Source: a virus (lineage: Duplodnaviria; Caudoviricetes). Taken from it: a DNA stretch of 49,034 nt. The notes under the pieces are model-generated. The model was given only the letters and a program-made list of their open reading frames with translations, searched no databases and had not been told where the DNA came from. The first letter of the stretch is position 1. Each line of letters starts with the position of its first letter. Below are positions 7,640-32,957 of this stretch, piece after piece. Location: positions 1 through 49,034 of IMG/VR virus record IMGVR_UViG_3300028587_000009, one strand, 5' to 3'. The position numbers were made by a program, and so were the translations under genes.

Positions 7640-8275
7640 GTGCTCGGATTTACAAGCCTTATCGACAGGGTTGTTGTGCGACAAGACAAGCAACCTATCC
7701 GTGAACCTTCTGCCTGGTGGAAGTTCTGCAACACCCTCAAGCTGATCCGGGATGGCTCCCTATTCATACCCTTACTGGCAAGGGTAGCCAGGAGACTTGG
7801 CCTGGCTGTTATATACTCCGAGTTGTACGGTCACGTCAGACACGCTGACGGCACCATCACCAACTACGGACTGCTGGGTAGGAATGTCATCACCGATGCT
7901 GGGGTAGCATTCCTGGCTGACGACTTCGGTGCAGGTGGTAGTGAAATCTCCAATATGAAGTTCCACGGATATGGAACCGGCACTACCAACGAAGCTGCCA
8001 GTCAGACAGCACTGGTAACCGAGTTGACAACTGAGTATGCCAGTAACATCAGACCAACTGGAACTCAGTCGGATTCTACCAATACGTACACCACGGTTGG
8101 TACACTCACCCCTGACTCTGGTGGTACCCTGGCGATAACAGAACATGGTATCTTCAGTGCCAGTTCTGCTGGCACTCTGTGGGATCGAACCAAGTTCACC
8201 GCCATTAACCTGGACTCGACGGCAGGAGATTCGCTGGTAACAACCTACGTCGCTACCTTCCCGAGTGGTGGATAA
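7640..8275 (+). CDS. Putative virion/tail structural protein
   Basis: The NVITDAG...GTGTT...TALVTE...ITEHGIF...LWDRTKF pattern recalls phage tail-fibre/collar N-terminal domains. Confidence 0.6.
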   Translation: MLGFTSLIDRVVVRQDKQPIREPSAWWKFCNTLKLIRDGSLFIPLLARVARRLGLAVIYSELYGHVRHADGTITNYGLLGRNVITDAGVAFLADDFGAGGSEISNMKFHGYGTGTTNEAASQTALVTELTTEYASNIRPTGTQSDSTNTYTTVGTLTPDSGGTLAITEHGIFSASSAGTLWDRTKFTAINLDSTAGDSLVTTYVATFPSGG

Positions 8276-8276
8276 C

Positions 8277-8783
8277 ATGGCCCTCACATCAACTCAACTG
8301 ACTGCTCTGAAGAATGCTATCAACGCCGATGGAACACTGTCGGCGTTGCCTAACAACAGTGACGGCAACTCTAGCATTGCTGCTGCTTTCAATCTTCAAG
8401 CCGTACCAGACTGGACCATCTGGAAAAAACTAGTGCCAGTAGCAGACATTGGTAAGAAGATAAATGGAACTGAGTTGGCTGGGCTGACCTCGCTCAACCA
8501 CACCCGACTCCAAACCATCATCACCCTTACCACTGCTTCTGGTGGGCTGGATGCTAGCTTGGCAGATCAGAGACAGTTCTTCGACGACATCTTCAGTGGT
8601 GCCGGAGGAACCAATACCAGAGCAGCACTCCTTATCCTGTGGAAGAAACTATCTAGCCGTGCAGAGAAGCTGTTCAGTACTGGTACTGGCAGCAACGCTT
8701 CCCCGGCTACGACGGATAGTAACATTGGTATGAACTTCACTCTAACCGTGGCAGACGTAGAACAGGCCCGTAACCTGCCGTGA
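8277..8783 (+). CDS. Putative virion protein
   Basis: ATG immediately after the previous stop; Ala/Thr-rich. Confidence 0.6.
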   Translation: MALTSTQLTALKNAINADGTLSALPNNSDGNSSIAAAFNLQAVPDWTIWKKLVPVADIGKKINGTELAGLTSLNHTRLQTIITLTTASGGLDASLADQRQFFDDIFSGAGGTNTRAALLILWKKLSSRAEKLFSTGTGSNASPATTDSNIGMNFTLTVADVEQARNLP

Positions 8784-8798
8784 TATAAGGGGCAAAAA

Positions 8799-9314
8799 AT
8801 GGCAGCAGGTGATATCACCACCGTATGGGGTTCTACAACTAGTAGCTCTGGTGGTCTAACTTCTCTCGGGTCGTCCAGCACGTTCATCGCAGGTTACGAG
8901 TGGTTCAAGGTGGATGTAGACGGCATGACGCCTGCTCCTCTAGACGTTCGACACCAGGGAAAGATTCGTGTAGGTACTACTCCCACTATCAACACAGAGA
9001 TAAGGATTTACCTAGTAGCCAGTGATAACGATAGTACCTGGCCAGACGTATTCGACGGTGCTGCCAGTGCCGAGACAGTCACGAGTGCTGGTGTCAGGGA
9101 TGGATTCGCCAAGCTAGTAGCTGTCTTACCTGTAGACAGCACTACGTCTGACAGGGACTATCCGTACAGCTTCAAGGCTTCTGATGCCTTCGGTGCCGCG
9201 CTGCCCAAGGCATATGTCCTGTTCGTGGCTCATAACACTGGTGTGAATCTTAACAGCACGGCTGGTAACCACACCTACGAGTATACTCCTGTCTACGCCA
9301 ACGTGGCCGCGTAA
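8799..9314 (+). CDS. Putative virion protein (beta-sandwich)
   Basis: Operon position and composition. Confidence 0.6.
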   Translation: MAAGDITTVWGSTTSSSGGLTSLGSSSTFIAGYEWFKVDVDGMTPAPLDVRHQGKIRVGTTPTINTEIRIYLVASDNDSTWPDVFDGAASAETVTSAGVRDGFAKLVAVLPVDSTTSDRDYPYSFKASDAFGAALPKAYVLFVAHNTGVNLNSTAGNHTYEYTPVYANVAA

Positions 9315-12338: not shown

Positions 12339-13391
12339 ATGAGGAGTATATCTCAAGTTCTTGTCAACCTGGATAGTCCTAGCCTTAGTCCACTACCGAC
12401 ACCATCCTGCTCCCCCTTACCTTACTCTAACCCTACCTGTGCCGCCCTGGCAGTGGAGAGCATGAGTAGCCACATGACGGATGAGGGTTGGCAGATCATG
12501 GTTGGTCTGGAACACCACGGCTTCAAGCTGTGCGGCTACAACCTGACTGTTGGCTTCACAGACGTAGATCAGATACTAGCCACTCTTTCTCCAGATGTCG
12601 TACTGGTGCAAGACAAGCGTGAGTGGGACTTGGCTGCCAAGGACTTCAGGGAACCTAGAGCCAGGTTCACCAACGTAGAATCTCTGAAGGACAGGCACGA
12701 TATCTTCAAGCTGACCATACTAAAGGATGCACACCAGCGACCCGAGTATCACATGCAATCTGCTGAAGAGATGGGTGTGCACGCCTGGGTCACCTACTAT
12801 CATTCAGACATTGTACACCACCTGGCCCCGTACACTCGCAAGGAGCACCTGATACGCACGTACCACTCCGTTAATGCTGACCGTGTACCACCCTACTCTC
12901 CAGAAGGTAGGTCGGGAACGTTGCTGTCCGGTGCAGTTAGCTCTGTGTACCCCATGCGACAGAACATGATCAGAGAGATACACAGACTACCGGCCACCAT
13001 CGTGCTTAGGCATCCTGGTTATCACAGGAAAGGGTGCATGACCTATGAATTCTTGCATGCTCTCAGTAAGTTCAAGGTCGCTATCTGTACATCTAGCATG
13101 TACGGCTACGCCCTACGTAAGATTATCGAGGCTACGGCGTGCGGCTGCATAGTGGTAACCGACTTGCCTACCGACGAGGTGTTACCCGAGATAGATGATA
13201 ACCTTATACGAGTGGCACCAACTATCTCTGGAAGAGATATGGGCAAGCTACTGTCTCGCCTCTACGAGACTTACGACGCCGACAGGCAGTACTACTTTGC
13301 CCAGCAGTGTAAGTCTTTCTACGACTACCGGAACACCTGCCGTATCCTTAAAGACCAGATACTTAACCTACGGAGAAACTACCCATGCTGA
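12339..13391 (+). CDS. Glycosyltransferase (GT-B, CgeB/Glyco_trans_1_2-like)
   Basis: C-terminal LSKFKVAIC...RKIIEATACGCIVVTD motif. Confidence 0.7.
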   Translation: MRSISQVLVNLDSPSLSPLPTPSCSPLPYSNPTCAALAVESMSSHMTDEGWQIMVGLEHHGFKLCGYNLTVGFTDVDQILATLSPDVVLVQDKREWDLAAKDFREPRARFTNVESLKDRHDIFKLTILKDAHQRPEYHMQSAEEMGVHAWVTYYHSDIVHHLAPYTRKEHLIRTYHSVNADRVPPYSPEGRSGTLLSGAVSSVYPMRQNMIREIHRLPATIVLRHPGYHRKGCMTYEFLHALSKFKVAICTSSMYGYALRKIIEATACGCIVVTDLPTDEVLPEIDDNLIRVAPTISGRDMGKLLSRLYETYDADRQYYFAQQCKSFYDYRNTCRILKDQILNLRRNYPC

Positions 13392-13984
13392 GGAAGTCCA
13401 ACCTTACCACCAGGAATCAACTCCCACTATTGCTCAACGAGAAGGGTCTGCTAGGCACGGCAGTAGAGGTAGGCACCCACCAGGGGGATTACGCTTCCAT
13501 CTTCCTGGAACGATGGGAGGGTAACATGCTAGTATGCGTTGACCCCTGGCACATACCACCGGGCTACGAGCACCAGATGAAGTTCCTGTGGGGTGACAAG
13601 AACAGAGATAATGACTTCCAGACTTGCATGGACAGATTGTCTAGGTACGAGGGCCGGTACTGCATGATGCGTATGATATCTGTCAAAGCATCCGAGCACT
13701 TTGAGGACCACTCACTAGACTTCGTTTATCTGGATGGTGACCACCGATACAAGGAAGTACTCAAAGACCTGCGTGCGTGGTGGCCAAAGTTGAAAATGGG
13801 TGGTATACTTGCAGGCCATGACGTGATAATGCCTAACCAGAGTGCTGAGGATGACTGGCCAACAGGAGTACAAGGTGCTCTGGACGCATTCTTCGGGCTG
13901 ACCACCCATCACTACGACATCAACCTGATAGTAGAGGAAGATGGTCTGCCCTGGTCCTTCTACCTGGAGAAGACTCATGAATGA
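13385..13984 (+). CDS. Class I SAM-dependent methyltransferase (Methyltransf_24-like)
   Basis: VEVGTHQG, VDPW, LDFVYLDGDHRY, GGILAGHD. Confidence 0.88.
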   Translation: MLRKSNLTTRNQLPLLLNEKGLLGTAVEVGTHQGDYASIFLERWEGNMLVCVDPWHIPPGYEHQMKFLWGDKNRDNDFQTCMDRLSRYEGRYCMMRMISVKASEHFEDHSLDFVYLDGDHRYKEVLKDLRAWWPKLKMGGILAGHDVIMPNQSAEDDWPTGVQGALDAFFGLTTHHYDINLIVEEDGLPWSFYLEKTHE

Positions 13985-14969
13985 GACTGAGGCAATTGGT
14001 TTTATGGTAGCCCCAGGCACGAGACGCCCCGGCAAGTACCGAGATGGTGTTATACAAATACACGTCACTAGAGCGTGTGACAAGTCCTGCTTCGGCTGCA
14101 CGCAGGGTAGTCAGCTACGGGGTAAGCTGGAGTTCATTAGTCTGCATCACTTCGAGCAGGCTGTGATCTCCCTAAAAGGGTACTTCGGAGTGGTCGGTGT
14201 CTTCGGAGGTAACCCAGCCCTTCACCCCCAGTTCATAGACCTGTGCAAGATACTCTGCGAGCACATACCATACGAACAGCGAGGACTGTGGTGTAACAAT
14301 CCGGTCACCGTTGAGAAGGCTCGGTGCATGGCAAACACATTCAACCCTAACGTCAGCAACCTGAACGTGCACCTGGATCTGCAAGCCTACAAGATGTTCA
14401 AGAAGGGTTGGCCACAGTCTATCGTAGTCGGTCTGTACAAGGATTCCAGACATAGCCCGCCGTTCGTGGCTATCAAGGATGTCATCCAAGACGAAGAGAA
14501 GCGTTGGGAACTCATCTCAGACTGTGACATAAACAAGCACTGGTCCGCTATGATAGGCGTGTTTCGTGGTCAGCTGCGAGCATGGTTCTGTGAGGTTGCT
14601 GGTTCACAGAGCATACTACACCAAGACGAACCAGACTATCCTGACACTGGGATGCCAGTAGACCCCAGCCAAACTGGTGTCATAGTCTATGATGGCCAAC
14701 TCTACGATTACTGGTGGCAGTTGCCAATGACTGCCTTTGCACACGAAGTCCGCAAGCACTGCCACGAATGCGGCGTACCCCTGCGAGGCTACGGTGAATT
14801 GGCACAGACGTCTGATGAGCATGCCACCGAGCAGACCAGTGCCACACATCAATCTGTGTTCCTACCCAAGCGAACTGGTAGGGCTGTCGAGTTGGTTACC
14901 GTCGAGTCTCAGTTAAGCAGGGGTCAGATACTGAAGATGACAGACTACTTAGGTAACGCAAGGCTATAG
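13977..14969 (+). CDS. Radical SAM protein
   Basis: CxxxCxxC (CDKSCFGC) and FGGNPALHP, plus additional C-terminal Cys (CEVA, CHEC). Confidence 0.85.
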   Translation: MNETEAIGFMVAPGTRRPGKYRDGVIQIHVTRACDKSCFGCTQGSQLRGKLEFISLHHFEQAVISLKGYFGVVGVFGGNPALHPQFIDLCKILCEHIPYEQRGLWCNNPVTVEKARCMANTFNPNVSNLNVHLDLQAYKMFKKGWPQSIVVGLYKDSRHSPPFVAIKDVIQDEEKRWELISDCDINKHWSAMIGVFRGQLRAWFCEVAGSQSILHQDEPDYPDTGMPVDPSQTGVIVYDGQLYDYWWQLPMTAFAHEVRKHCHECGVPLRGYGELAQTSDEHATEQTSATHQSVFLPKRTGRAVELVTVESQLSRGQILKMTDYLGNARL

Positions 14970-14978
14970 GAGGCACAA

Positions 14979-15695
14979 ATGGATGATTCGTTCCCTAGTG
15001 GTATGGTGGACTGCATAAGGGAGTTCTTCAAGAAGGACCATAAACGCCCGGCAGGTCTAGACATCTACCATGACGTGTTCGACGCCCCCCTGTTCTTCCC
15101 GTTGCAAAGGAAGGCAGAGTTGATCAAGATGATCCAAGTTGCCCGCTCGATAAAGCCGAAAGTCATCTACGACATCGGCAGCGACAAGGGGGGTGGTCTG
15201 TACCACTGGTGCAAGTGTCTACCCAGCATAACCAGAGTTATCTCATGTGAGGTTAGAGGCACCCCTTATGCTGAGGAGTTTGAGAAGAACTTCCCCTTCA
15301 TCAACTTCAACTGGCTGCCAATGTCTAGTCTTGATGACACTGCTTTGAGTGTGGTCTTCCAGGTTACCAAGCAGCAGAAGATAGACATATGTTTCATCGA
15401 CGGGGACAAGACTGCATTCACGGAAGACTTCTATAATATACTTCCGTACATGAGTAGCAAAGGCATTATCTTCATGCACGATATAACAGACAACCCGATG
15501 CCAGGCGACTCATTCCAGGAGATACGTAGGCATGGTTACGTAACATCGGAGATAATAGACAGGTCAGACAGTCTGCTGGCTATCAATAGGGAAAAGGAAG
15601 GTATCCCTAGCAGTGGACCATACGAGAGTTGGTTGCGTCATTGGAAGGGTAAGAGTTGTGGGGTTGGGGTCATATACCTTTCTGGAGGAAACTAA
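14979..15695 (+). CDS. Class I SAM-dependent methyltransferase
   Basis: DIGSDKGG, IDICFIDGD, GIIFMHD. Confidence 0.8.
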   Translation: MDDSFPSGMVDCIREFFKKDHKRPAGLDIYHDVFDAPLFFPLQRKAELIKMIQVARSIKPKVIYDIGSDKGGGLYHWCKCLPSITRVISCEVRGTPYAEEFEKNFPFINFNWLPMSSLDDTALSVVFQVTKQQKIDICFIDGDKTAFTEDFYNILPYMSSKGIIFMHDITDNPMPGDSFQEIRRHGYVTSEIIDRSDSLLAINREKEGIPSSGPYESWLRHWKGKSCGVGVIYLSGGN

Positions 15696-23399: not shown

Positions 23400-23581
23400 G
23401 TGTTACTCCTTCTTGTAATATCGTTGTACCGTGGATTCCCATTCAAGTAGAACCTCCGTATCACACCGTAAACTCTAGATATAGAGATGTTGAACCTCTT
23501 CGCCAGGGCCGCATAAGACTCGCCTGCCAACCAATACCGGATCAACTCACGGTTGCGTCTGGTCTTCTCTGGTAGAGGCAT
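23396..23581 (-). CDS. Small HTH (Mor-like) DNA-binding protein
   Basis: RNRELI...GESYAALAKRFNISISRVYGVI. Confidence 0.7.
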   Translation of the reverse strand: MPLPEKTRRNRELIRYWLAGESYAALAKRFNISISRVYGVIRRFYLNGNPRYNDITRRSNT

Positions 23582-24791
23582 TAACCACCCTCTTGTACCT
23601 CGTCTCTGTCCACATTGTAGCCGCAATCTTCCAGGCGAAATCTTTGATCTGAAGGATACGCTTCCTTACCTGTGTTGCCGGTGACCCTAGCTTGTAGTGG
23701 TGGAACGCCGAGAACATGGGCTGTGCTACTGTCCTGAAGAACGGCTCGTCCCAGTTCAATGAGTCTATCATCTCCACAGAACGCTCAGTTGGATTCTGAT
23801 TGATGTCAACAAAATCCTTTAGTTCTCGATCAAACACTGTCCAGTTATGAACCAATGGGACATGGTTCTTGCTGGTGTCACTAGCCAGATTCTGAATAGC
23901 CTGCACATCCCTACCAGACTCAAGCCACTCCTCCGGGTTCCAATTGTTGGTGTAGGCGTGCAGATTATTGGTAACGTGGTGATACTTCCCGACCTGCACA
24001 CCAAGGTGTGCGGCTAGATATTCCTGGAGGAAAGTAAAATGCACATAGTTGGCTCCGAACAGTCCCCAGATCATGTCATTACTCCTGTTAACGACAGTCA
24101 TGTCTAGCCACCGGTTGGGCAAGAAGATGTTATCTGGGTCGCCAACACAGTTCGGACAGGTGAATGGGGACTCGTCAAGCTCTGCCGCACGCTCTGGTGT
24201 CCAGTTACCCTTGCATGTTGGGCAGACCGGGTCCGTACGCAGGGCGAACATAACCACCAAGTTACAACACACATCCTTGGAGTTATCTATCCTCAGTAGA
24301 TCGCCCCCCACATTCCACATTGACAACACCGCACGCCTACTGTGGGGGTTGGCTCTCAGGTGGTTGATGATTACCTGGAGTTGGTCAACGTAGGTTGGTG
24401 GCTCCAGCATTCCGCCGTGTTTACTGACGTAGTCAGCGTTGCCATCCTCAATCATATAACGACGCCACCTATACCCGTAAGCACCATTGAACGTCATTCC
24501 ATCGTCGCTAAACTCGGCCATCCTCTTGACGTAGTACTGCAACGGAGCCACATCATTCCTGCCAGCTAGCATCCACAATGCTTCGTACAGGTGGAAGAAC
24601 GGGTTACAATCCCGTGCAGGGTTGAGCAGTACCCTGGCTTTAGGATTGTGATAGGTGATGGTGATTGGCTCCGGATGGTAGATGCAGTCACCGTACCGAC
24701 TGGGTGTCTTCTCGACCAGTGCCCTACCTGTGTGGAACAACTCGACTACTTGGTGAAACGCATCCGCTAAGTCTCTGTACTTCAGGTGCAT
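23547..24791 (-). CDS. Thymidylate synthase-fold enzyme, probable dUMP hydroxymethyltransferase
   Basis: NPFFHLYEALWMLAGRND, GAYGYRWR, SRRAVL, KDVCCN, RSNDMIWG..GAN (Asn indicates a dUMP substrate), NLHAY. It neighbours an aGPT-Pplase gene. Confidence 0.85.
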   Translation of the reverse strand: MHLKYRDLADAFHQVVELFHTGRALVEKTPSRYGDCIYHPEPITITYHNPKARVLLNPARDCNPFFHLYEALWMLAGRNDVAPLQYYVKRMAEFSDDGMTFNGAYGYRWRRYMIEDGNADYVSKHGGMLEPPTYVDQLQVIINHLRANPHSRRAVLSMWNVGGDLLRIDNSKDVCCNLVVMFALRTDPVCPTCKGNWTPERAAELDESPFTCPNCVGDPDNIFLPNRWLDMTVVNRSNDMIWGLFGANYVHFTFLQEYLAAHLGVQVGKYHHVTNNLHAYTNNWNPEEWLESGRDVQAIQNLASDTSKNHVPLVHNWTVFDRELKDFVDINQNPTERSVEMIDSLNWDEPFFRTVAQPMFSAFHHYKLGSPATQVRKRILQIKDFAWKIAATMWTETRYKRVVNASTREDQTQP

Positions 24792-24828
24792 GGTATCCTC
24801 CTGTCTTAGTCGGGCGACTATCTTCCTA

Positions 24829-24857
24829 ATGTTAACAGAACTAAACCTCAAAATCAA
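24829..24857 (-). promoter_or_regulatory. sigma70-type promoter for the dUMP hydroxymethylase operon
   Basis: TTGATT-N17-TAACAT with an extended -10 TG. Confidence 0.55.
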
Positions 24858-24900
24858 CAGCCCCTCCGTGTATCCCGTCCAAATTTTTATCGAATATCTA

Positions 24901-24929
24901 TTGACTAATCCATAGCTCTCTCCTATACT
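24901..24929 (+). promoter_or_regulatory. sigma70-type promoter for the lone + strand wHTH gene
   Basis: TTGACT-N17-TATACT. Confidence 0.7.
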
Positions 24930-24973
24930 ACTCTTGTGTGGACCATAACCATCGCCCTGTAAGGAGCTAAGTC

Positions 24974-25366
24974 ATGTCGGAAGTCAAGAAGCCAGTCGCC
25001 TCCACCGCAACCGCAACCAAACCGGCTGGCAAGAAACCGGCGGCTCAGAAGCCAGCCACTCCAAAGCCACCGGCTCAGAAGCTGACCAAGCTGACACCGG
25101 AAGAGGAGCGTGAGAACGCTACGTCCGTTGGACTGGGTTTGGTACAGTACCGTATCCTGCGTGCGATGTCCGACGGTACGGAGCACAGCTATCGAGACAT
25201 CGAGGCGAAGACCGGCTACTACAAGAACCTCACCCCGGTCATGCGTCAAGCCTACGATGGTAGCCTTTCTGCAAAAGGTCTGATCAAAGAGGTTGTCAAG
25301 AACGTTGATGGCAAAGAGAAAATCACCTTCGTCATCACCGCCAACGGCAAGAAGCTCGTCAAGTGA
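24974..25366 (+). CDS. Winged-helix protein with histone H1-like K/P/A-rich N-terminal tail
   Basis: RBS AAGGAG and its own promoter. KPAGKKPAAQKPATPKPP tail; RILRAM...SYRDIE...KGLI...FVITANGK wHTH pattern. Confidence 0.75.
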   Translation: MSEVKKPVASTATATKPAGKKPAAQKPATPKPPAQKLTKLTPEEERENATSVGLGLVQYRILRAMSDGTEHSYRDIEAKTGYYKNLTPVMRQAYDGSLSAKGLIKEVVKNVDGKEKITFVITANGKKLVK

Positions 25367-26075
25367 CCCTCCGCCCTATGCAAAACATCATCCTGTCAAG
25401 CATAGGGCATCCCACCCCATCCTGCATCATTCTATCCAGTTCTGCACGGTAACATACCGTGTGGAACTGGTCTCTTAATCGACTCAACCTCCTGGCGAAG
25501 TTGGCTAGAGACTTGTCTCTGCTATGGTGGTACTCCAGTACCAGCTTGTTGCACGGAGGTATAAGATCGGCGTCTATTATACCAAGCTCAGACCCCTCAA
25601 TATCCATTTTCACCCCATCCCAACCACCTTGTAGCAACCCAGCCCACACGTTAGGTACTAGTCTGCTATGCTTGTACCCTCGAACTCTCATCACGGTATG
25701 CCTAGCCGTATTGCTAGGGTCTCCGTTGTGATACAGGTCAACCTCATGACAGTTGTGTTCCGTAACGGCAGCCATGTGGCAGTCTGCCCACGGGCAGTTT
25801 CTCTGGAGGAGAGTATAGTTATCCTCATCTGGTTCGTAGCAGGTGACTCTCGCTCCGGCCAGGTGGCAGTAGAGTGCGAACACTCCGATGTTAGCTCCTA
25901 GATCTAACCATCGTTCCCCAGGCAGCACGTCGAATCCCACCTTCACCTTTCGATACGACTTGTCCTTAAATACCTCTCGTATGGTGTGACTATCAGTAGT
26001 GTCTGGTCTATACCGAAAGTTAACACCCTGTATCTTGGTAACCACCAGTTTCTTGCTGGAAACTCTTATCACCAC
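25359..26075 (-). CDS. FkbM-family SAM methyltransferase
   Basis: LDLGANIGVF, YEPD, VKMDIEGSE, LVLEYH. Confidence 0.88.
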   Translation of the reverse strand: MVIRVSSKKLVVTKIQGVNFRYRPDTTDSHTIREVFKDKSYRKVKVGFDVLPGERWLDLGANIGVFALYCHLAGARVTCYEPDEDNYTLLQRNCPWADCHMAAVTEHNCHEVDLYHNGDPSNTARHTVMRVRGYKHSRLVPNVWAGLLQGGWDGVKMDIEGSELGIIDADLIPPCNKLVLEYHHSRDKSLANFARRLSRLRDQFHTVCYRAELDRMMQDGVGCPMLDRMMFCIGRRVT

Positions 26076-26944
26076 TCGTCTCCTTTCCCATCATAAAGAC
26101 CCCGTGTCCTACCCTCGTGGAGCCTGGTTCGCTCCCACTTGTCATACTCACACATGCAGTTTTGGAAGTCTATGGCTTCCATCCTAGCCACCAGGTGTTT
26201 GTTCAGCCTCCTACTCAACCTTTCCTTAACCTCTTTCATCTCAACCTGGAACTGTCGTCCGCTCACCTTGTACCGCATGTCTCGCTCATACAGCCGGTTC
26301 AGACCCTTAACCGAACCCGGTCCTACGGGGAACCAAGTCCACCGATCGGCCCACTCACCCGTCACCGCCCAACGCAAGTCTGCTACTATCTGGCTAGCTA
26401 TGAACTTGCTCACACCTGGAAACCCCTGCAAATCCATCCAGGTTGACCGCATGCTAAACGGGGTTATATCTGGTGCCATACGATACATGGTGTCACAGAC
26501 TATGTTGATAACCTGATACACCTTAGTCTGCTTCTCACGGTCTCGACAGCCGTGATTGCCGGTTATCAGGTACGCTGCGGAGAAGTTTTTCAACCCATGT
26601 CTACTCCTTTCCTCCAGAAGATCTGTTAGTCGGGTAGGCTCCCATACGTGAGGAAATCCTACAGCCTCTAGTGAATCAACCCTGTTAAGGTGTCTAGCCA
26701 GGGTTGCAGCCAACAGTATGTTGGGGTGGTCCTTGTAGGGCGTATACCAGTTCTTGATCAACCAAGAAGACACCTTGTCGTCTGCCCTGACTACGTTGCA
26801 GAACTTCCTACTCTGCAGAATCCTGTCATCTGTCCAGGGCTTGGGCAAACCCATCTTCTTCTTCATACGAATCTGCTCCCGCTCGGTTACCCAGTATACC
26901 AGTCGCTCGAACGGGGGTAGCTTACCGGCATCACTTACTAACAT
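26069..26944 (-). CDS. aGPT-Pplase1 / 5-hmdU DNA kinase helical-domain family base-hypermodification protein
   Basis: ERE-IR...PWTDDRILQ..KFCNV.R.DD.VS, HhH-like FPGVSKFIASQIVADL, GPGS..GL, QNCMCEYDK. Confidence 0.8.
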   Translation of the reverse strand: MLVSDAGKLPPFERLVYWVTEREQIRMKKKMGLPKPWTDDRILQSRKFCNVVRADDKVSSWLIKNWYTPYKDHPNILLAATLARHLNRVDSLEAVGFPHVWEPTRLTDLLEERSRHGLKNFSAAYLITGNHGCRDREKQTKVYQVINIVCDTMYRMAPDITPFSMRSTWMDLQGFPGVSKFIASQIVADLRWAVTGEWADRWTWFPVGPGSVKGLNRLYERDMRYKVSGRQFQVEMKEVKERLSRRLNKHLVARMEAIDFQNCMCEYDKWERTRLHEGRTRGLYDGKGDEW

Positions 26945-31433: not shown

Positions 31434-32285
31434 TCAAGAGGCTTCTTTTGGCTCCGCTTGTTCGTTGAAGACGCGTAACTGTTCGAGCGTGCGCAGACAG
31501 TTCTTACTGTCCTTCTTCAGTCCTTTGTTGTAGTACTTGCACATAGTCTCGATCATACCCCTCTGCTTGGCACTGATATAGTTACCAACGTCGAGTAAGA
31601 TTCTCCTAGGTGACACGTTCAGTTGCTCTACGAACCTGTCATCCTTGAGAATCTCACCTTGCCATGCAACCAGGGACACTACTCCATAGAAGAACAGTTC
31701 GGCCATAGCCTCATCCTGTCCTGGCCAGGTCTTCATCATAAGTGTCAGTGCTCGTTGCACCACGTCCTCACCGAATCTGGCAGTCAGTCTGTAGAGACTA
31801 CCAAGACAGGCAATCTCCCCATACTTCAGAACACGTGACCCGGTCATGGTAGGTGACGTCGGTATAGCCAGTTTCATTCCAGCACCTTCGACGGCAGACT
31901 TGGCTGCCAGTGCAATAGGGTCTTGTGCAGTCAACGAAGTAACGAACATCTGTGCAGCGGAGACGGCAACCCTACCTCCGTTCAGAATCTTGAAGATCTG
32001 AGCCTCATACTGTGGCCCACTGCTTTCCAACATCAGACACTTCCAGTGTTCCATCCCCAACTTCATCATGGCCGTCATTCGTTGCAAACCGTCAATGATG
32101 TATAGCTTACCATCACTCCTTCTACCAACCGTCAGTACTCCTGCTGCTGCTGGCATGAAGTTCTTCTCGATCTTCCTGGCGTGTGGTTTGATACCACGCT
32201 GATAGGAGTTGTCTACCGTGAGTGTAGACAATAGAACCTTCTCGATCTTACCTTCCAGACTCCCACCGATTCGACGACTCGACAT
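31434..32285 (-). CDS. ParB/Srx-like N-terminal domain protein (DUF6551-like)
   Basis: LTVDNSYQR...GVLTVGRR.DG..YIIDGLQR. Confidence 0.75.
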   Translation of the reverse strand: MSSRRIGGSLEGKIEKVLLSTLTVDNSYQRGIKPHARKIEKNFMPAAAGVLTVGRRSDGKLYIIDGLQRMTAMMKLGMEHWKCLMLESSGPQYEAQIFKILNGGRVAVSAAQMFVTSLTAQDPIALAAKSAVEGAGMKLAIPTSPTMTGSRVLKYGEIACLGSLYRLTARFGEDVVQRALTLMMKTWPGQDEAMAELFFYGVVSLVAWQGEILKDDRFVEQLNVSPRRILLDVGNYISAKQRGMIETMCKYYNKGLKKDSKNCLRTLEQLRVFNEQAEPKEAS

Positions 32286-32315: not shown

Positions 32316-32355
32316 AAAGAAACTGCCTGTCTTTCCTCACCACGCCGGACAGGCA
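32316..32355 (-). terminator. Intrinsic terminator of the ncRNA operon
   Basis: TGCCTGTC-N16-GACAGGCA followed by GTTTCTTT on the - strand. Confidence 0.6.
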
Positions 32356-32412
32356 CGACGTTCCTCGGGACACTGGTCTGTGGGAAGTGACTTTCACAGC
32401 CAGGTTGGTGAT

Positions 32413-32481
32413 TACTACCGGTAGGAATCGAACCCACCCTCCCGCAAGGTTGCGACCCTTACGTGGACCACCAGGAGTAGC
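32413..32481 (-). ncRNA. D-armless tRNA-like RNA A (69 nt)
   Basis: Acceptor GCTACT/GGTAGT, T arm GGTGGG-TTCGATT-CCTACC, central stem CGTAAGG/CCTTGCG with a 7-nt loop GTCGCAA. Confidence 0.65.
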
Positions 32482-32483
32482 AT

Positions 32484-32577
32484 TGCTGCTGGCAGGAATC
32501 GAACCTGCCCTAAAACTTCATAGCTCCCGTCTACTGGCATGTCACTATGAAGCTCCCCTCTAGCCACCAGGAGCAGC
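32484..32577 (-). ncRNA. D-armless tRNA-like RNA B (94 nt)
   Basis: Acceptor GCTGCT/AGCAGC, T arm GGCAGG-TTCGATT-CCTGCC, central stem GCTTCATAG/CTATGAAGT. Confidence 0.65.
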
Positions 32578-32580
32578 GTA

Positions 32581-32830
32581 GCAGACTTTACACCCACGGT
32601 CTGCCAGCGTGGCGGAATCTACCAACCTCGAACAGGGAGGTAAGTAGGTCGGTAGCGTGTTTGGTGGTGGGCTGCCAGCGTTATCTCCTCCGCCCACCGG
32701 GGAGTTTAACCCTGTCGCCGATGCGTCCAAGCAACAGGGGTTCGACGTACGGCCTGCTAAGGATACCCACAAGGTGTCTCCTACCTCCTTAGCAGCCTGG
32801 GACACTGGCCTTGCCCAGCAACGAGCACGG
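32581..32830 (-). ncRNA. Putative structured RNA of about 250 nt, family unknown
   Basis: Serial hairpins (CTGCTAAGGA/TCCTTAGCAG, CCCTGT/ACAGGG, GGTGGGC/GCCCACC, GCAGAC/GTCTGC) and no credible ORF. Confidence 0.5.
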
Positions 32831-32840
32831 CAGGAGAAAT

Positions 32841-32912
32841 AGGCTCCGGCAGGACTCGAACCTGCACTACTAGATTTAGAGTCTAGTCGTCTTCCAGTTG
32901 ACTCACGGAGCC
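32841..32912 (-). tRNA. tRNA with CUA anticodon (amber suppressor type)
   Basis: GGCTCCG TG AGTC AACTGGAA GACG A CTAGA CTCTAAA TCTAG TAGT GCAGG TTCGAGT CCTGC CGGAGCC T forms a 72-nt cloverleaf. Anticodon at 32877-32879; CCA is not encoded. Confidence 0.88.
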
Positions 32913-32927
32913 GGGGCGGTAGAGGAG

Positions 32928-32957
32928 ATTATAAATCTCCCCCACCTATCTTGTCAA
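32928..32957 (-). promoter_or_regulatory. Strong sigma70-type promoter for the tRNA/ncRNA operon
   Basis: TTGACA-N18-TATAAT, 15 nt before the tRNA; the palindrome GGAGATT-N3-AATCTCC spans the -10. Confidence 0.75.

Follow-up and report, generated by a model that had tools for sequence, protein, structure and literature searches.

What kind of RNA is encoded between the gene for a putative single-stranded-DNA-binding protein (SSB) and the DNA polymerase gene of a tailed phage, and what might this RNA do? The question is raised by positions 32,316 to 32,957, minus strand, of IMGVR_UViG_3300028587_000009, a single virus record of 49,034 bases from an uncultured tailed phage, which was analysed at its full length and is called the window here. 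An earlier note on this DNA had described the cassette as a self-contained non-coding RNA operon, whose precursor is cut by tRNA-processing enzymes into four to five RNAs that form a translation-manipulation module, possibly acting with the phage CsrA. The cassette does have the make-up of a tRNA-type polycistron, with an amber tRNA and two tRNA-like bodies, A and B, but it is not conserved as a cassette. Tentatively, we favour reading it as a phage tRNA-type unit in which the amber tRNA and the two mimics, whose acceptor and T stems are predicted to be of 6 base pairs (bp) each (6/6), are likely excised by host RNase P and RNase Z; the stable RNAs so released would probably take no part in decoding and would serve as decoys for host proteins gripping the acceptor end and T arm. 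Comparative support for the form of these RNAs is good.

Both tRNA-like bodies of the earlier note exist, with the best-supported ends listed in Table 1, and both score below Rfam cut-offs. In B, an arm of 10-13 bp with a loop of about 20 nucleotides (nt) replaces the anticodon arm, and an A stands at the discriminator. Element A, which is a paralogue of B, carries a 6-7-bp arm with the 7-nt loop GUCGCAA and can be drawn as a compact cloverleaf; its acceptor is extendable by one U-A pair and its linker may hold a 3-bp mini D hairpin. Neither element encodes CCA, and each has a variable stretch of 4 nt. Fold stability corresponded to z-scores of -2.8 for B and -1.9 for A. The 6/6 pairing of B reached a probability of 0.45-0.82 in local contexts and that of A about 0.7 when folded alone, and the canonical 7/5 register, which has a mismatch at pair 4 (4:69) in both elements, was rejected at 0.00 for B and at most 0.01 for A. 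Long-range acceptor pairings, which would make B a 339-nt and A a 244-nt scaffold, were also discarded (probabilities of at most 0.05 and 0.00, respectively); the long-range partner of A sits in a strong local hairpin. The two elements differ at 7 of 24 stem bases with none of the 12 pairs broken, and all 12 pairs were kept in 0.04-0.06% of random-substitution trials and in 5-7% when only transitions were allowed. B cannot decode; A has U33 and A37 in its 7-nt loop, with G at 32, and probably does not decode.

The two elements were then compared with known RNA classes. With the Rfam tRNA family RF00005, B scored 20.5 bits, below the cut-off, and A gave no row, and neither is a canonical 7/5 tRNA; with the mascRNA-menRNA family RF01684, A scored 20.9 bits and B 15.2 bits against a cut-off of 42.5. 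The 8/4 or 9/3 split with a long variable arm that marks allo-tRNAs is absent from A and B, whose variable regions are short. ARAGORN and Rfam called no transfer-messenger RNA, and neither element has G3-U70; no Y RNA was matched in Rfam up to an E value of 10, and no TROVE domain was seen among 72 open reading frames (ORFs) of the window and 22 of its sibling record. A and B therefore fall outside the known classes, and their modelled shape is most like that of mascRNA. Neither the 6/6 form nor this locus was found in Rfam 15 or in the full-text literature searched (main texts), and A and B appear, from sequence and predicted fold, to represent a structural type not seen before among phage tRNA mimics.

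Unrelated phages also contain this 6/6 frame, again with a UGGYGG linker. A first pattern scan for linker and T loop, which covered 47 of the 64 parts of the collection, returned at least 98 distinct non-self matches; two of the 98 (loci L286 and L323) match the 6/6 register exactly, where permutation predicts 0.04. A second scan (84 loci) re-found both and added L004, from the clade of this phage, and a six-member family from Lactobacillus phages; when collapsed, this amounted to 4 of 56 against 0.58 expected, one of the four being the Lactobacillus-phage family, for which 7/6 is the better reading. Strictly 6/6 are B, L004 and L286, and L323 resembles A in that its acceptor is extendable by terminal pairs; L004 reached 27.7 bits with RF01684. 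L286 and L323, both of them fragments, adjoin genes of the Pfam families AAA_24 and DUF669, and the SSB alignment of this clade finds nothing in these two phages. Each of these three RNAs has a Sak4 + SSB pair nearby, the Sak4 gene being at most 2.5 kb away: a Sak4 profile derived only from the clade matched 3/3 of the 6/6 loci and 5/79 others (Fisher p 0.0006, relatedness ignored), four of the five others being one family with a 42-nt minimal 6/6 stem and an AAUGG bulge. A wide unconstrained scan of all fetched loci gave 26 6/6-like arms against 1.1 expected, a count that is a lead only. The null is too lenient, and the count is inflated because many loci had been chosen for their CTGG motif and several belong to one family; several of the arms turned up by chance in flanks. 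Five candidates were dropped from the 6/6 set, L341, L291 and L339 because they also fit 7/5, and L312 and L355 because each resembles the interior of a larger tRNA-like fold.

Further tRNA-like forms were recorded in their own right. The 7/6 family of the Lactobacillus phages (L390:2491-2566, plus strand, and also L372, L383, L415, L417 and L440) has a Sec-like D arm and sits beside anticodon-armless tRNAs; in the GenBank phages Lb and 3-SAC12 the matching stretch carries no annotated feature. Minimal 6/6 stems of 41-50 nt with a UGG-containing bulge and a T loop occur in L366 (about 2494-2535), L423, L428, L443, L401, L426 and L129, and the L366 family, which lies near a Sak4-like gene, matches the crAss-like phage cr131_1. 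In an unrelated phage, a tRNA-like body with an extra hairpin (L256:345-458) lies between a gene with an SSB-like tail and a helicase-like gene, both labelled by eye.

Across the clade, the interval between the SSB-like and polymerase genes is a hot spot for such elements. Relatives were collected by protein searches with the polymerase, the SSB-like protein and the exonuclease, which gave 111 distinct phages at 90% SSB identity and 84 complete intervals; intervals were counted up to 3 kb and total 107.6 kb. A T-arm detector found 60 sense and 0 antisense T-arms in them, and 9 and 4, respectively, in 1.05 Mb elsewhere. ARAGORN called 24 elements, of which 7 were reassigned by eye to an odd set, their anticodon loop not being of 7 nt, and the 60 T-arms comprise 17 ordinary tRNAs (16 phages) and 43 odd elements (30 phages), this phage included; an ordinary or odd element is present in 33/84 complete intervals. 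Among 50 relative records, 20 of 27 genome-wide Rfam tRNA matches fall inside the interval, and the only gathering-level Rfam matches in 37 related loci were tRNA and one int-alpA. The ordinary tRNAs are eight CAU, four Pro UGG, two Arg CCU, an Ile UAU, a Val UAC and the single CUA of this phage. In the odd elements the acceptor and T arm are mostly kept and the anticodon arm varies. A fully paired 7-bp acceptor within 230 nt was found for 24/43 against 6.7 expected (the count includes the probably fortuitous long-range partner of A), with the D-loop GG kept in 17 of these 24, and 7 of the 43 are T-arms without an acceptor partner within 200 nt. Their lengths range from 58 to 244 nt; several have a GAAA or UUCG tetraloop capping the former anticodon arm, or inserts of 50-180 nt, and CCA is encoded in 0/60. 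Of the expected synteny, then, the position and the kind of element are kept; the cassette itself is not, since relatives carry different tRNAs and tRNA-likes and no fetched locus holds a homologue of its middle or 3' parts. At this one position the locus offers a natural series that runs from ordinary tRNAs to bodies whose anticodon arm is replaced, showing that acceptor, T arm and elbow are what is kept, and standard tRNA finders miss or mislabel such genes.

Some structures are shared between fetched loci. L046:5151-5225 and L184:7002-7070 have a conserved element in which two T-arm hairpins, spaced by about 46 nt, lack acceptor stems, and in L006:5611-5665 and L074:12788-12845 tandem tRNA-likes are separated by a shared trailer whose two helices cross in the manner of a pseudoknot. 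L125:10258-10300 and L186:6700-6742 have the same two-hairpin module with apparent compensatory changes; in one phage the module lies within a tRNA-like RNA, inside its variable arm, and in the other it stands free.

The first body of the cassette, the CUA tRNA of the earlier note, was confirmed by ARAGORN and Rfam as a canonical tRNA with a 7-nt anticodon loop, conserved D and T loops, one D-stem mismatch and no encoded CCA. It decodes no sense codon. Its U73, G2-C71 and C3-G70 are the acceptor-branch identity set given for bacterial tRNA-Cys in a passage of PMC9976931; the GCA anticodon, a major Cys determinant, is absent. From its bases, the amber tRNA is predicted to accept cysteine and to be a weak reader of UAG. 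The 'Pyl' label given by ARAGORN follows the anticodon alone, and identity as tRNA-Pyl was rejected in view of U73, a canonical D-loop GG, a UUCGAGU T loop and the lack of PylRS among the scanned ORFs. A tRNA-Pyl has a reduced D loop without GG and a T loop without the standard motif. The usual discriminator of tRNA-Pyl is G73, yet some bacterial tRNA-Pyl are described with U73 (PMC9976931), so that the discriminator alone does not exclude tRNA-Pyl; the label is not upheld because of the Cys identity set together with the ordinary D and T loops.

Amber recoding, through which translation might have been manipulated as earlier suggested, was rejected. The genes read normally in code 11, with neither in-frame TAG codons nor coding density pointing to recoding, and the structural genes of the sibling record are intact in the same code. 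The stops of 67 hand-picked genes are 12 TAG, 29 TGA and 26 TAA, and no homologue alignment crosses a gene-ending TAG (1972 ORFs from 126 related loci, with 19 kb of the window covered). Read-through fusions were dismissed as the four TAG genes with an in-frame next gene equal the 1-in-3 expectation, and the stops seen inside homologue alignments, a mixture of all three stop codons, trace to shadow frames or to the ends of alignments. Separately, the terminase large subunit of the sibling record lies in two ORFs in different frames (L241:7232-7921 and 7924-9006), the first of which stops at TAG.

The features of the cassette and its neighbours are listed in Table 1.

Table 1. Coordinates of the cassette features and flanking genes in the 49,034-base window.
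Feature	Position	Strand	Remark
DUF669-like putative SSB gene, 492 residues	33223..34701	-	Upstream landmark of the locus across the clade
Sigma-70 consensus promoter match	32928..32957	-	TTGACA (32957-32952), 18-nt spacer, TATAAT (32933-32928); 12/12, predicted only
13-bp hairpin with G-U pairs	32918..32946	-	Overlaps the -10 box; about -20 kcal/mol for a 60-nt stretch
Intact 7/5 tRNA, anticodon CUA (amber)	32841..32912	-	ARAGORN; Rfam RF00005 62.2 bits against a cut-off of 29
Predicted multibranch domain, about 170 nt	32656..32829	-	Closing helix and three hairpins; holds the first CCAGTGTCCC
10-bp hairpin	32619..32655	-	C-rich anti-Shine-Dalgarno-like loop; z -3.4 for a 44-nt stretch
Hairpin directly 5' of element B	32579..32606	-	
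tRNA mimic B, 94 nt	32484..32577	-	6-bp acceptor, CCUGGUGG linker, 6-bp T stem, UUCGAUU loop
tRNA mimic A, 69 nt, paralogue of B	32413..32481	-	6-bp acceptor, CCUGGUGG linker, 6-bp T stem
Hairpin CTGG-CTGTG/CACAG-A-CCAG	32373..32403	-	Overlaps the second CCAGTGTCCC (32376-32367)
Terminal 8-bp hairpin, 16-nt loop, T-rich tail	32316..32355	-	Doubtful intrinsic terminator
DUF6551/ParB-like gene	31434..32285	-	Directly downstream of the cassette
DNA polymerase A gene	31269-28870	-	After the ParB-like gene

The promoter noted earlier is the only perfect sigma-70 match in the window by our own looser scan; a second, with a palindromic spacer, is in the early region of the sibling record, at the start of its early arm (L241:5167, minus strand). 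The hairpin over the -10 box begins 15 nt past the stop codon of p96, the 96-residue gene that follows the SSB-like gene, and is modelled as one that would form only in read-through RNA from these two genes; the -10 box lying inside it suggests that read-through transcripts of the SSB-like gene cover the region as well. Among 76 equal minus-strand windows, the whole region ranks first in stability, with a z-score of -3.3 against 60 shuffles at a span limit of 110 nt and of only -1.0 without it. The hairpin-dense segment of about 250 nt is present as claimed but only modestly structured (z -1.1), its 4 local helices of at least 8 bp being matched by 6/300 shuffles and 5/184 genome windows. For the multibranch domain, the minimum-free-energy fold equals the centroid (z -1.85, 10/200 shuffles equally stable), alternative local folds exist, and BLAST found no relative among the fetched loci; no convincing target of the anti-Shine-Dalgarno-like loop was found in the phage genome. 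The CTGG-CTGTG/CACAG-A-CCAG hairpin was located in the 3' region, whose overall fold is no more stable than that of shuffles (z -1.0), and the supposed terminator is atypical: the scanner did not call it, and its T-run can pair upstream.

The repeated 10-mer CCAGTGTCCC is indeed present near both ends (32808-32799 and 32376-32367) but at chance level, with no role supported, a repeated 10-mer of any kind occurring in 360/2000 shuffles and 51/151 genome windows. A 9-mer derived from it has 16 scattered matches in 1.7 Mb of fetched loci, and CCAGTGTCCC was dropped as a candidate for a conserved tRNA-trailer motif, no shared context being seen behind other phage T-arms (11 stretches, 2 own and 9 non-self). 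A second repeated 10-mer, ACGCTGGCAG (window 32610-32601 and 32681-32672), is complementary over 7-8 bases to the CCAGTGT repeat, and one such pairing closes the predicted middle domain. Each tRNA trailer could also form a pseudoknot with the loop of the hairpin that follows it (9 bp and 6 bp), a possibility noticed post hoc and lacking comparative support. The region is non-coding, as had been proposed: nothing points to its short ORFs as proteins, four of them having no Pfam or PHROG match, and 0 cassette bases are covered by matches from the 1972 ORFs of the related loci. A tRNA-associated hepatitis-delta-virus-like (theta) ribozyme is a double pseudoknot beginning at the tRNA 3' end; our own descriptor for such folds, run without a positive control, found 0 behind each of the three bodies, Rfam matched no ribozyme, and this candidate was set aside.

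Excision of the tRNA, B and A from the precursor is probable, judging from sequence, because the 12-bp acceptor/T stack and the elbow are kept, which RNase P, RNase Z and the CCA enzyme read; passages of PMC10424219 and PMC4919922 describe such reading in general tRNA processing, and bacterial RNase P is described as tolerating extensive truncation (PMC4919922). By established tRNA biology, host RNase P would cut the 5' ends, and a 3' cut after the discriminator would be followed by CCA addition. The released mimics may then act as decoys against tRNA-targeting anti-phage effectors, such as Cas12a3 and the toxic small alarmone synthetases (toxSAS) FaRel2 and CapRel, and the amber tRNA, with no sense codon to decode, may serve as a decoy too. 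We favour this reading because two mimics and a tRNA that decodes no sense codon stand behind a dedicated promoter match, the elements diversify fast, and there are defences that grip the kept parts, as described in passages on FaRel2 (PMC11559606) and Cas12a3 (PMC12851939). The presence of two mimics in tandem, preceded by a perfect promoter match of their own, agrees with an RNA that is produced for itself. If they are decoys, the locus would represent an RNA counter-defence against tRNA-tail and acceptor-stem toxins. A more doubtful proposal is that A and B are members of a hitherto undescribed class of tRNA top-half mimics spread across phages; such a class would share the 6/6 stack and UGG elbow strand, range from 41-nt minimal forms to scaffolds with long RNA cargo where the anticodon arm would be, travel with Sak4-SSB modules in unrelated phages and supply abundant nuclease-resistant decoys against acceptor-end defences. 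If true, these decoys would counter acceptor-end defences that replacement tRNAs cannot escape.

Several results weigh against action as decoys. No element is present in 51/84 complete intervals, the odd elements are mostly unrelated to one another in sequence, and their inserts are modestly structured (median z -1.5, 8/24 below -2). Only this phage among the 42 with elements has a sigma-70 consensus in front of them, and its absence from the other 41 fits a cis role as well. The conservation of pairs between A and B is not significant under the transitions-only null (0.05-0.07). The 6/6 probability of A is 0.00 when it is folded together with B, and neither 6/6 acceptor forms in the equilibrium fold of the whole precursor (0.00), so the 6/6 fold depends on co-transcriptional folding or processing. 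A could in principle enter the ribosome, and no paper on a phage tRNA mimic acting as a decoy was found in the literature searched.

A rather unlikely alternative is that the tRNA and tRNA-like bodies are punctuation in cis, RNase P/RNase Z cut signals in the replication operon that separate the SSB message from that of the polymerase; the SSB message would be protected by its 3' hairpin, the intervening hairpin RNAs would be released and the tRNA-shaped pieces would be by-products. Cleavage signals of this kind have precedents in mascRNA of MALAT1 and the t-elements of plant mitochondria. The position is fixed, with the first T-arm at most 212 nt from the SSB stop in 21/33 complete intervals with an element, ordinary and odd elements are interchangeable, and only the parts read by RNase P and RNase Z are kept; the proximity of the three other 6/6 RNAs to Sak4 genes, and of two of them to AAA_24 and DUF669 genes, also agrees with it. 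Cut signals account better than decoys for the fixed position and for the rarity of promoters in general, but not for the tandem copies or long inserts: one site would be enough, yet there are three bodies here and two or three in several relatives, and long structured inserts are not needed for cutting. Moreover, this phage has its own promoter match, and terminators after the SSB gene are not significantly rarer where elements are present (6/33 against 15/51, p 0.31), for which reason a trade-off between the two was rejected. Were punctuation the answer, phages would be using host RNase P to tune a replication operon.

Two other explanations fit worse than either decoys or punctuation. It is unlikely that A and B are relics, duplicated and decaying tRNAs that are processed but functionless at a permissive, highly transcribed landing site for tRNAs, as might be argued from the patchy presence of elements, their low mutual similarity, the pieces of ordinary anticodon loops retained in some inserts (L046, L085) and the low Rfam scores of A and B. 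Decay should affect the anticodon arm no more often than the acceptor and T stems, which disagrees with the excess of perfect acceptors among odd elements and with the 12 pairs kept by A and B over 7 changes; the 6/6 frame and UGGYGG linker also recur in unrelated phages, and odd elements outnumber ordinary tRNAs 43 to 17. Manipulation of translation is similarly improbable. It would have the amber tRNA promoting read-through, A acting as a missense tRNA (CGC in its 7-nt loop), and the hairpin RNAs acting on ribosome-binding sites or with CsrA. The well-formed CUA cloverleaf with its Cys identity set, U33 and A37 in A, and a possible 9-bp pairing between Shine-Dalgarno-like and anti-Shine-Dalgarno-like stretches in the middle segment are in its favour, as are the presence of CsrA in this phage and the irregular tRNA polycistrons with possible suppressors described in part of PMC5389517. 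It is opposed by genes that are intact in code 11, 12/67 of them ending in TAG uncrossed by any homologue alignment, by the rarity of the CUA tRNA (1/17 ordinary tRNAs at the locus), by the inability of B to decode, and by the genomic complements of the loops, none of them longer than 12 nt and most located within genes or antisense to them. Joint action with the phage CsrA, as once suggested, is not borne out: the cassette has 12 GGA against 11.6 expected and 1 ANGGA against 3.2, which is unlike a CsrB/RsmY-type sponge, the CsrA-type motif CANGGANG is absent from its coding strand, and CsrA was matched in only 4/111 clusters. Elsewhere, CANGGANG is found no more than 160 nt past the SSB-like stop codon, frequently as part of a hairpin loop, in 17/110 relatives against 6 on the opposite strand (L006, L053, L160 and others).

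The plus strand of the window carries the tape measure and tail genes. On the minus strand, UvrD helicase, resolvase, uracil glycosylase, CsrA, exonuclease, Sak4-like and SSB-like genes are followed by the 96-residue gene, the cassette, the ParB-like gene and polymerase A, and then by ribonucleotide reductase, 5-hydroxymethyldeoxyuridine (5-hmdU) kinase-like, thymidylate synthase and primase genes. The SSB-like protein has no Pfam match of its own in the scan of window ORFs; it has a feature score of 0.92 to a 'DUF669 domain-containing' cluster (Atlas), and its gene comes after the exonuclease and Sak4-like genes. A further 19 kb or so, including terminase, portal and capsid genes, comes from the sibling record. 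Isolate phages are all distant, since polymerase matches over at least 80% of the query are only 20-23% identical, and polymerase relatives fall from 100% straight to at most 59% identity, which leaves no closer relatives for covariation in the middle segment. Searches with the ParB-like gene and with CsrA returned only this phage itself. Genome bins were rejected as evidence of the host, as the two bins with relatives belong to different phyla. Thymidylate synthase-like, FkbM methyltransferase and 5-hmdU kinase-like genes at 23547-26944, and radical SAM and methyltransferase genes among the tail genes at 13385-15695, suggest DNA base hypermodification and virion decoration.

Phage tRNA-like RNAs of uncertain role have been an open question since T4 RNAC (species 1 RNA, rnaC) and RNAD, which are described in parts of PMC9697503 and PMC3014915 as small stable RNAs of unknown function in a tRNA cluster. 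The likeness of RNAC lies in a canonical T arm close to the 3' end, with long helices replacing the D and anticodon arms. It differs in its 5-bp T stem, and it shares no sequence with them beyond the T loop (BLAST matches of at most 12 nt), so they do not form one family; A and B, moreover, sit at the SSB-to-polymerase junction. The YrlA Y RNA has a tRNA-mimicking domain with D- and T-like loops and occurs in phages (PMC4201824); it lies within 4 kb of a Ro60 gene and has a closed acceptor loop on a long end stem, and in this it differs from A and B, for which Rfam gave no Y RNA match and the scanned ORFs no TROVE. Phage-encoded tRNAs that counter tRNA-targeting defences (PMC10264068, PMC11464382 and PMC11555353, in part) are of the same general kind as the 17 ordinary tRNAs of the locus, but they replace cut host tRNAs by decoding, which B cannot do and A probably does not. 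mascRNA and menRNA, compact tRNA-like RNAs without a conserved anticodon loop, are described as being cut by RNase P from a longer transcript and given CCA (passages of PMC10424219, PMC4919922 and PMC9976931). They have the CUGGUGG string in common with A and B, and RF01684 is the best Rfam match of both A and L004. Scores are far below the cut-off, mascRNA belongs to a vertebrate long non-coding RNA and its Rfam model is 7/5; A and B nevertheless present the shape of a substrate for mascRNA-like processing, with cleavage as a prediction. Allo-tRNAs, as Mukai et al. (2017) describe them in the relevant part of PMC5389517, have 8/4 and 9/3 stems and occur in irregular tRNA polycistrons; some are charged but unused in translation, and some lie near toxin-antitoxin systems. 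They too split the 12-bp acceptor/T branch unconventionally within polycistrons of odd tRNAs, but with a longer acceptor, a shorter T stem and long variable arms, whereas the 6/6 split of A and B would be a new build of the 12-bp tRNA top half beside 7/5, 8/4 and 9/3.

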